Source: a virus (taxonomy: Duplodnaviria; Heunggongvirae; Uroviricota; Caudoviricetes). Taken from it: a stretch of 45,210 bases of DNA. Shown here piece after piece: positions 25,248 to 25,913 of this stretch. Each line of letters starts with the position of its first letter. The stretch's first letter is position 1. Made by a program: the position numbers and the translations under genes. Location of the stretch: positions 1 through 45,210 of IMG/VR virus record IMGVR_UViG_2711768053_000020; one strand, 5' to 3'. Below the pieces are notes generated by a model. That model was not told the origin of the DNA. It did no database searches and saw only the letters and a program-made list of their open reading frames with translations.

Positions 25248-25267
25248 AAAAAACGCCAGAAGGCGGC
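25248..25267 (-). terminator. putative intrinsic terminator after the 25267-25875 moron
   Basis: On the - strand a 4-bp GC stem with TTCT loop followed by T6, starting at the stop codon. Confidence 0.3.
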
Positions 25268-25875
25268 TATAAAATGTGCTCTAGAATCCGCATATTTCCT
25301 TCAAAAAGTATTTCCTTTTTTAACGGATCAACTATTTCACCACTCCAATATTTATGAGCTTTTTCTAAGGCAATATCATACGGTATATCGTCATTCATCA
25401 AATGTTCATCACTCGCCTCATGTATAACTCCATCCAACTCAACTCTGAACACAGTCTGATTGTCCCCCAATCCCAACTGCGAAATCCAATAGTGAAGACT
25501 TTCTTCACCTTGTGAAACCCATAAGCATTTCTGTCTTGAAGGCTTTTTTGGGTAACATTCAACTCGAACGGCTTCCCAAATCAGTTCTCTAGTATATTTA
25601 CAAAAATGCATAGCCAATTCTTGACCAACTGCCGCTATATCTTGTACAGAACACTTAGTAGTAAGTGACCCTGTCTTTAGGCCATAAAGCCACTGCATTC
25701 TCGTATAGTCAGTTAGATGCCCGTTAACATTTACTGGTATTGGAGGGATGTTTGAACTTAAGAAATAATTAAAAAATGGATTTGGGAATGAGGTGCTAGC
25801 TAAATCTCCTACTGCCAAAGGCCTATACTTAACCCAAGGATTTTGCGATTTAGTTGCTATGTAAAAATAGTCCAT
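25267..25875 (-). CDS. hypothetical protein (202 aa), AT-rich moron between lysis cassette and HNH/terminase
   Basis: Uninterrupted ORF in AT-rich DNA with flanking direct repeats and a putative terminator; no family recognised. Confidence 0.55.
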   Translation of the reverse strand: MDYFYIATKSQNPWVKYRPLAVGDLASTSFPNPFFNYFLSSNIPPIPVNVNGHLTDYTRMQWLYGLKTGSLTTKCSVQDIAAVGQELAMHFCKYTRELIWEAVRVECYPKKPSRQKCLWVSQGEESLHYWISQLGLGDNQTVFRVELDGVIHEASDEHLMNDDIPYDIALEKAHKYWSGEIVDPLKKEILFEGNMRILEHIL

Positions 25876-25880
25876 GCGTA

Positions 25881-25913
25881 CTTACCACTATAAAAAGACA
25901 CCTTACCACTATA
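25881..25913. repeat. two copies of CTTACCACTATA, 21 bp apart, immediately upstream of the 25875 start
   Basis: Exact 12-bp direct repeat at 25881-25892 and 25902-25913. Confidence 0.4.

Follow-up and report, generated by a model that had tools for sequence, protein, structure and literature searches.

The gene and the slot that it occupies

The 45,210-nt virus record IMGVR_UViG_2711768053_000020 of IMG/VR (Caudoviricetes), referred to below as the window, contains an open reading frame (ORF) of 202 aa on the minus strand between the Rz/Rz1 spanin genes and the HNH-terminase genes. In the original prediction, which was made from the letters of the sequence alone, this ORF was described as a second moron of unknown family, located in AT-rich DNA and forming an autonomous, possibly regulated transcription unit. 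The ORF was found at the predicted place, and it is a real coding gene: its ratio of nonsynonymous to synonymous substitutions (dN/dS) relative to a 78%-identical homologue was 0.09, which indicates strong purifying selection, and its predicted structure reached a predicted local distance difference test (pLDDT) value of 94. The encoded protein is a DUF2441/BC2332-like protein with an ADP-ribosyltransferase (ART) fold, and the gene is accessory cargo in a recombination-prone slot between the lysis and packaging genes of a lambdoid prophage. On the same strand it is preceded by genes for a Q antiterminator, a 261-aa ORF, a holin, an endolysin and Rz, and followed by genes for the HNH endonuclease, TerS, TerL and a portal protein. 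The surrounding DNA is AT-rich, as had been stated, with a GC content of 0.37-0.41 over positions 25200-26000 compared to 0.50-0.60 in the flanks, i.e., about 15 points lower.

The cargo status of the gene, which had also been anticipated, emerged from the comparison of related prophages that was proposed along with the original prediction. Of 5426 complete E. coli genomes, 50 contained the 784-bp insert at an identity of at least 99%, each with a single copy that was always on the chromosome. Where the Rz and HNH-TerS(P27) flanks of other prophages were similar, the slot held different genes: (i) iss/bor on the opposite strand, with iss present in E. coli MDR_56; (ii) a GrlR-family regulatory gene in E. 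coli ECE170 (locus extract 2942-3262) and in phage SKA5 (2794-3114), which is oriented like the late genes and has a strong 8-bp terminator behind it, a homologue of a hairpin of the window; (iii) unrelated hypothetical genes; (iv) gp63 in phage SfI. Lambda bor and E. coli iss occupy the same physical slot downstream of Rz and are likewise AT-rich accessory genes between core modules. Lambda bor is transcribed opposite to the late genes and is expressed in lysogens. Whereas iss lies on the opposite strand, the DUF2441 gene was always oriented with the late operon and had no recognisable promoter.

The order lysis genes, DUF2441 gene, terminase genes, all on the same strand, was found in six different enterobacterial prophage backbones, with same-slot homologues at 78%, 59%, 57%, 54% and 41% identity. 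These backbones differ in their antiterminators (Q types, Antiterm), in their endolysins (GH19, GH24, lambda-type) and in their terminases (Hendrixvirinae TerS, Nu1/GpA, Terminase_2, DUF2280, P27/HNH). The UV-inducible Cronobacter phage phiES15, with a homologue in the lysis-to-terminase position, is among these backbones. In a prophage of Fictibacillus sp. JL2B1089 (locus extract 7767-13225), a homologue interrupted by an in-frame stop follows a DUF2513 gene and lies just upstream of the genes for HNH, DUF6527, TerS, TerL and portal, so that the DUF2441-HNH-terminase order of the window recurs in a Firmicutes prophage. Both the variable cargo site with its shared terminator and the repeated occurrence of the gene between lysis and packaging genes in unrelated lambdoid backbones are new from this analysis. 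As a separate observation, a gene pair for a Ser/Thr kinase and a PP2C phosphatase is located between the Q antiterminator and lysis genes of the Cronobacter prophage/phage phiES15 (locus extract 1970-3489).

Table 1. Features in and around the slot (positions in the window)
Feature	Position	Strand	Remarks
DUF2441/BC2332-like ADP-ribosyltransferase-fold gene	25267..25875 (including stop codon)	minus	ATG start; 202 aa; from ORF listing
AT-rich leader	25876..25979	minus	104 nt, Rz stop to ATG; with the ORF, insert of ~713 bp
12-bp repeat, proximal copy	25881..25892		CTTACCACTATA; coding strand TATAGTGGTAAG; ends 5 nt before ATG
12-bp repeat, distal copy	25902..25913		Exact copy of CTTACCACTATA
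Weak terminator-like hairpin plus T6	25248..25265	minus	Stem 25254-25265, T6 25248-25253 (plus-strand positions)
Spacer upstream of HNH	25196..25266	minus	71 bp; backbone, not cassette; common to prophages with different cargo
Rz spanin gene	25980..26447	minus	Upstream slot boundary; Rz1 embedded at 26021..26227
HNH endonuclease gene	24845..25195	minus	Downstream slot boundary; part of HNH-TerS-TerL packaging module
TerS	24225..24728	minus	
TerL	22495..24228	minus	

Hairpin and upstream repeat

A short GC hairpin followed by T6 is indeed present at the stop codon. Its stem (CGCC/GGCG) consists of four G-C pairs, encloses a 4-nt loop and begins one base past the TAG stop. The energy of the hairpin alone was -6.6 kcal/mol (z = -2.1), and it was not called in a terminator scan with a threshold of 5 pairs. 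The 71-bp spacer in which it lies showed 85% mean column identity with the spacers of ECE170 and SKA5, whose slot cargo differs; the homologous element of these two has an 8-bp stem of -14.1 kcal/mol that is followed by U6 (z = -4.4). Megablast matches to SKA5 and ECE170 both stop at position 25266, one base short of the stop codon of the DUF2441 gene, while at the Rz end of the slot the similarity with other phages and prophages does not extend beyond the Rz stop. As the spacer is common to prophages with other cargo, the hairpin is a property of the slot or backbone. Judged from these alignments, it appears to be a weakened (decayed) version of the spacer terminator that was not brought in by the present cassette. 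A plausible role of the spacer terminator is insulation of the packaging genes.

The exact 12-bp direct repeat that had been described upstream of the start codon is present, too, with its copies 21 bp apart (start to start). The 12-mer CTTACCACTATA occurs nowhere else in the window, even with one mismatch allowed, and two matches to it were obtained in none of 100 shuffles. In Markov simulations, an exact 12-mer pair within 60 bp was found in 0.4% of 800-bp stretches of local composition and, when the whole window was simulated, in approximately 10% of cases. The two copies are 22 bp apart in E. coli JE86, the difference being one T. The repeat was absent upstream of the same-slot homologues examined, even at 78% protein identity, and no upstream element was conserved among homologues. 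We therefore regard it as a local, lineage-specific duplication and not as a feature of the family.

Each copy of the repeat contains the hexamer TATAGT, for which a manual search revealed neither a -35 partner nor a TG extension (extended -10). A promoter scan, which relied on consensus and may miss a weak or activator-dependent promoter, did not detect a sigma-70-like site on the coding (minus) strand, and an Rfam scan of positions 25100-26100 yielded no match. A fold of the leader RNA with long-range pairing over the start codon was considered as a regulatory structure and dropped (z = -1.1 relative to shuffles). A regulatory role of the repeat is possible, with none of these results in its favour.

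Given that no promoter was found, that the repeat is not conserved and that the hairpin belongs to the shared spacer, the proposed autonomous transcription unit was not borne out, and the original interpretation as a whole is partly supported. Compared with a moron in the sense of Hendrix and Juhala, the locus has the differently filled slot and the deviant base composition. An own promoter was not detected in the coding-strand scan, and a weak terminator-like hairpin is present but part of the shared spacer.

Independently of the locus, exact direct repeats of 12 bp (ATTTTGACGGGTCAGA...), spaced 15 and 30 bp apart, are clustered at positions 33360-33405. Besides these and the pair upstream of the DUF2441 gene, the window has no close 12-mer repeats; the cluster may represent iterons or operators.

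Family, fold and candidate active site

Contrary to the original prediction, the family is not an unknown one. The 202-aa protein matched Pfam DUF2441 (PF10386) with 40.9 bits (gathering cut-off 25; E = 2.6e-10) and PHROG 9842 over its full length, and a near-identical protein in RefSeq is annotated as 'DUF2441 domain-containing protein'; in NCBIfam only a weak, meaningless match was obtained. The top structural match of its model was 2AUA, followed by the rifampin ADP-ribosyltransferase Arr and other ARTs. In an independent Foldseek search, Arr ranked directly after 2aua (probability 0.93). A profile built from 99 homologues, all of which match DUF2441, retrieved 2AUA from PDB (E = 3e-23) and no other entry. 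The protein thus shows both the fold of 2AUA and the ART core fold. DUF2441 is listed by Pfam in the ADP-ribosyltransferase clan (PMC7955679), the SCOP group 'BC2332-like' (d.166.1.6) is among the ADP-ribosyltransferase-family codes used in PMC3000352, and a published structural template comparison matched 2AUA with the diphtheria toxin catalytic site (PMC3024214). RefSeq, Pfam and PHROGs already contain this very protein, and knowledge of its fold class dates back to the solution of the 2AUA structure.

The founding structure of DUF2441, BC2332 of Bacillus cereus (PDB 2AUA), is approximately 21-23% identical to the 202-aa protein and is itself uncharacterised; a toxin-like function was predicted for it only from the structural template match (PMC3024214). 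A search of 1.84 billion representatives (E <= 0.001) gave 2239 DUF2441 clusters at 50% identity. Of the 150 matches listed, nearly all are single-domain proteins of about 200 aa. Outside Enterobacteriaceae, the family is dispersed over Bacteroidota, Bacilli, Clostridia, Nitrospira and gammaproteobacteria, and fusions to MuF or head proteins were not seen in the family. A comparison of 99 members with Pfam (E <= 10) did not link DUF2441 to a specific ART family, as it returned DUF2441 itself, noise and one ATP-cone fusion only. Two unusual members may be mentioned: a metagenomic protein of 272 aa (P0097) is fused to the ATP-cone domain PF03477, a nucleotide-sensing regulatory module, and a tandem pair of DUF2441 paralogues is encoded in a metagenome-assembled genome (MAG) of Bacilli (locus extract 6353-7572).

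Conservation was scored in 240 diverse DUF2441 representatives. Residues E97, R104, R114, W130, Y176 and W177 were invariant, and N32, E101, P112, S113, E188 and G193 were conserved in at least 99% of the sequences. The family-invariant set (E97, R104, P112-S113-R114, W130, Y176-W177, E188, G193) is completely present in the 202-aa protein, and the pattern of conservation looks like that of an active site. The family consensus of the first beta-strand, Y-H-I-S, resembles the beta1 motif 'H-x-T/S' of ARTs. In the window protein this motif reads F-Y-I-A, with Tyr5 at the His position, whereas BC2332 has kept the His (YHIV). The Tyr at the usual His position is a new observation of this analysis. 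Glu188 opens the last beta-strand, which is where ARTs place their catalytic Glu. Within the NAD+-site triad (H-Y-E, R-S-E or H-H-h), Tyr5 and Glu188 would be the outer members as judged by motif; the middle residue is not assignable by motif alone.

Other stand-alone ART enzymes are likewise encoded by phages, namely Alt, ModA and ModB of T4 and AcrIF11, the latter being a phage- and plasmid-encoded ART (PMC12421852). T4 Alt/Mod (R-S-E) and AcrIF11 belong to other ART families, with no sequence match or close structural match to the 202-aa protein. A difference was also noted with respect to DarT of DarTG systems: the 202-aa gene and the homologous loci are without an adjacent macrodomain antitoxin, and there was no PADLOC match to DarT.

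Candidate functions

The explanation that we favour, with confidence and reservation in about equal parts, is that the protein is a stand-alone ART-fold enzyme which is made late in the lytic cycle and ADP-ribosylates a target in the conflict between phage and host. In all prophage contexts that were seen, the DUF2441 gene had the same orientation as the late operon, and the gaps between late genes are short. Since the packaging genes are transcribed through the DUF2441 gene, transcription from the Q-dependent late promoter is the default assumption. In lambda, Q-modified polymerase reads through terminators. The gene would hence be transcribed within the Q-antiterminated late operon, and any expression in lysogens would be low and is unproven. 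The product is expected to be a cytoplasmic, stand-alone protein of about 200 aa. We infer that the beta1 motif (Tyr5) and the near-invariant Glu188 would form the ART cleft, that NAD+ would be bound there and that ADP-ribose would be passed on to a target involved in the conflict between phage and host; the invariant residues Glu97, Arg104, Ser113 and Arg114 may form a family-specific substrate site. According to a published survey, the genes of phage ARTs are often neighbours of those for terminase and portal, and the proposal is that such enzymes are made together with terminase and portal and then either packaged into heads or directed against immune systems aimed at the packaging apparatus (PMC9503650).

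Several findings weigh against this explanation. At the beta1 position, Tyr was found in 22 of the 240 representatives and His in 211, and in some ART families, e.g., in PARP13, loss of the beta1 His goes along with loss of activity. The candidate catalytic residues were placed by motif and not by geometry. No demonstrated activity or function of any DUF2441 member was found in full-text searches of the literature. With PADLOC (PADLOC-DB 2.0), neither the 202-aa protein nor its Citrobacter homologue gave a match, and among 50,697 phage records only phiES15 contained a detectable homologue. No partner gene recurred among 132 flanking proteins of 23 loci, and many distant homologues have housekeeping or resistance-like neighbours (GNAT, beta-lactamase family, HAD hydrolase, M15 peptidase).

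In favour of the explanation are the family and fold, the enzyme-like conservation, the purifying selection, the cargo status and the recurrent position and orientation, and also conflict-type neighbours of distant homologues. Among the homologues elsewhere, distant relatives in defence islands were observed, which is also new from this analysis. In Citrobacter sp. ANG330 (locus extract 5046-8609) a 44%-identical homologue is located directly downstream of CbtA and Septu on the same strand, and this Septu system is complete (PtuA, E = 3e-162; PtuB, E = 2e-104). An uncultured Clostridium MAG (locus extract 5024-12884) carries a homologue inside a type I restriction-modification operon, in the order hsdM, DUF2441, hsdR, with an Abi_2 gene downstream. 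On a gut metagenome contig found in many samples (extract 1235-9079), the DUF2441 gene has a restriction-like neighbourhood, as it lies between the genes for an unannotated 1201-aa protein and a PLD-nuclease/helicase/DUF3427 protein. The recorded positions of homologues include one two genes upstream of a PLD-helicase-DUF3427 protein, one near HicAB in a phage-like region of Acinetobacter, and some next to integrases. A macrodomain or ADP-ribosylglycohydrolase (ARH) is not annotated within 20 kb on either side of the gene in the near-identical JE86 prophage. Nor is there an adjacent cognate antitoxin gene of the type known from DarTG and ParST/RES-Xre (macrodomain, Xre or similar), the neighbours being Rz and HNH.

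For the family as a whole, we tentatively suggest, as a possibility and not as the probable case, that DUF2441 proteins are solo NAD+-dependent ARTs for phage-host conflict that are encoded as a fixed late-operon gene at the lysis/packaging junction of enterobacterial lambdoid prophages and in defence islands elsewhere. Such proteins might shield the cell, lysing or lysogenic, against competing phages, or they might disarm host immunity that senses terminase or portal. The exchange of His for Tyr might then mark a clade with altered chemistry or substrate.

A different explanation, to which we assign a lower yet appreciable probability, is that the gene is a host-defence moron that is expressed in the lysogen from a weak promoter of its own in the 104-nt leader. 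The two 12-mers with their -10-like TATAGT would then be promoter or operator elements, and transcription would end at the hairpin, ahead of the packaging genes. Superinfecting phages would be blocked via ADP-ribosylation of phage DNA, RNA or protein, or via NAD+ depletion. The AT-rich insert, the non-random repeat just upstream of the start and the terminator-like element at the stop, which is strong in relatives and would fit a slot built to insulate the packaging genes, are consistent with this, as are the homologues beside Septu, within the type I restriction-modification/Abi_2 locus, beside PLD-helicase and near HicAB. Moreover, the differentially expressed genes listed for one culture transcriptome include a DUF2441 gene of Salmonella (PMC9867438). 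However, the putative promoter has no -35 partner and was not called on the coding strand, the repeat is not conserved upstream of homologues, and the hairpin of the window comprises only 4 bp. In addition, the constant late-operon orientation differs from that of bor/iss in the slot, and neither a PADLOC model match nor an antitoxin, immunity or sensor partner was found.

An Arr-like enzyme acting on a small molecule (an antibiotic, a toxin or a signalling nucleotide) is an unlikely alternative, although a substrate of this kind would account for no antitoxin being needed. Arr (PDB 2HW2, 9IAF) was the closest characterised structure by two methods and is, like the almost exclusively single-domain DUF2441 proteins, a small, solo ART without an antitoxin. 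Arr occurs on mobile elements. The GNAT acetyltransferase, beta-lactamase-family, HAD hydrolase and M15 peptidase genes beside some distant homologues would be in line with small-molecule chemistry, too. The structural match was weak, however (template modelling score of about 0.3-0.44), and no sequence similarity to Arr was detectable. Compared with Arr, the 202-aa protein is approximately 60 residues longer and contains a long helical insert (residues 59-107), and the invariant Arg/Glu/Ser set of the family differs from the H-Y-D motif of Arr. One ART clade has been described as modifying small molecules (PMC9503650), but the strongest recurring context of the DUF2441 gene is that of phage lysis and packaging, which offers no obvious reason for an antibiotic-modifying enzyme.

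It also appears rather improbable that the protein is a catalytically dead ART fold which binds or sequesters a host factor or nucleotide, or that the gene is a functionless hitch-hiker at a module junction. The replaced beta1 His, the lack of a known activity for any family member and the in-frame stop in the Fictibacillus homologue would agree with such a fate. The low dN/dS and the charged residues that are invariant in all 240 representatives, and also in the window protein, argue for a selected function instead; moreover, His and Tyr interchange inside the enterobacterial prophage clade while the remaining site is kept.

A core phage function, e.g., as a lysis regulator or packaging accessory factor, is very improbable: the lysis-terminase position is kept in six enterobacterial backbones and a homologue adjoins HNH-terminase genes in a Firmicutes prophage, but the large majority of related prophages lack the gene, as do all of the phage records except one, unrelated genes occupy the same slot, and family members occur far from any phage genes. 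A type III secretion system effector or an exotoxin was rejected, as the N-terminus looks neither like a signal peptide nor like a hydrophobic stretch, a B subunit is missing and the slot is not a tail-fibre effector locus.

Many systems of phage defence and counter-defence revolve around ADP-ribosylation and NAD+ chemistry, and DUF2441 is a sizeable family with a solved structure and without an assigned function. An active ART with a phage-related target, as favoured here, would be a new single-gene player, and the recurrence at the lysis/packaging junction would be explained; if the protein is not such an enzyme, the gene stays an ordinary piece of hypothetical cargo. As a lead for experiments the gene is reasonable but not surprising, given that it encodes a known but uncharacterised kind of protein. 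The locus offers a tractable E. coli example in a defined slot, for which prophages of the same backbone with iss, a GrlR-family gene or other cargo are natural controls.

Finally, the 261-aa ORF between the Q antiterminator and the holin genes (27340..28125, minus strand) is also very AT-rich (GC 0.30-0.39). It is presumably the first moron meant in the original prediction. It did not give a PADLOC match and is listed in RefSeq as 'hypothetical protein' (WP_000289222.1). In Stx phages, the position between the Q antiterminator and the holin is occupied by stx.

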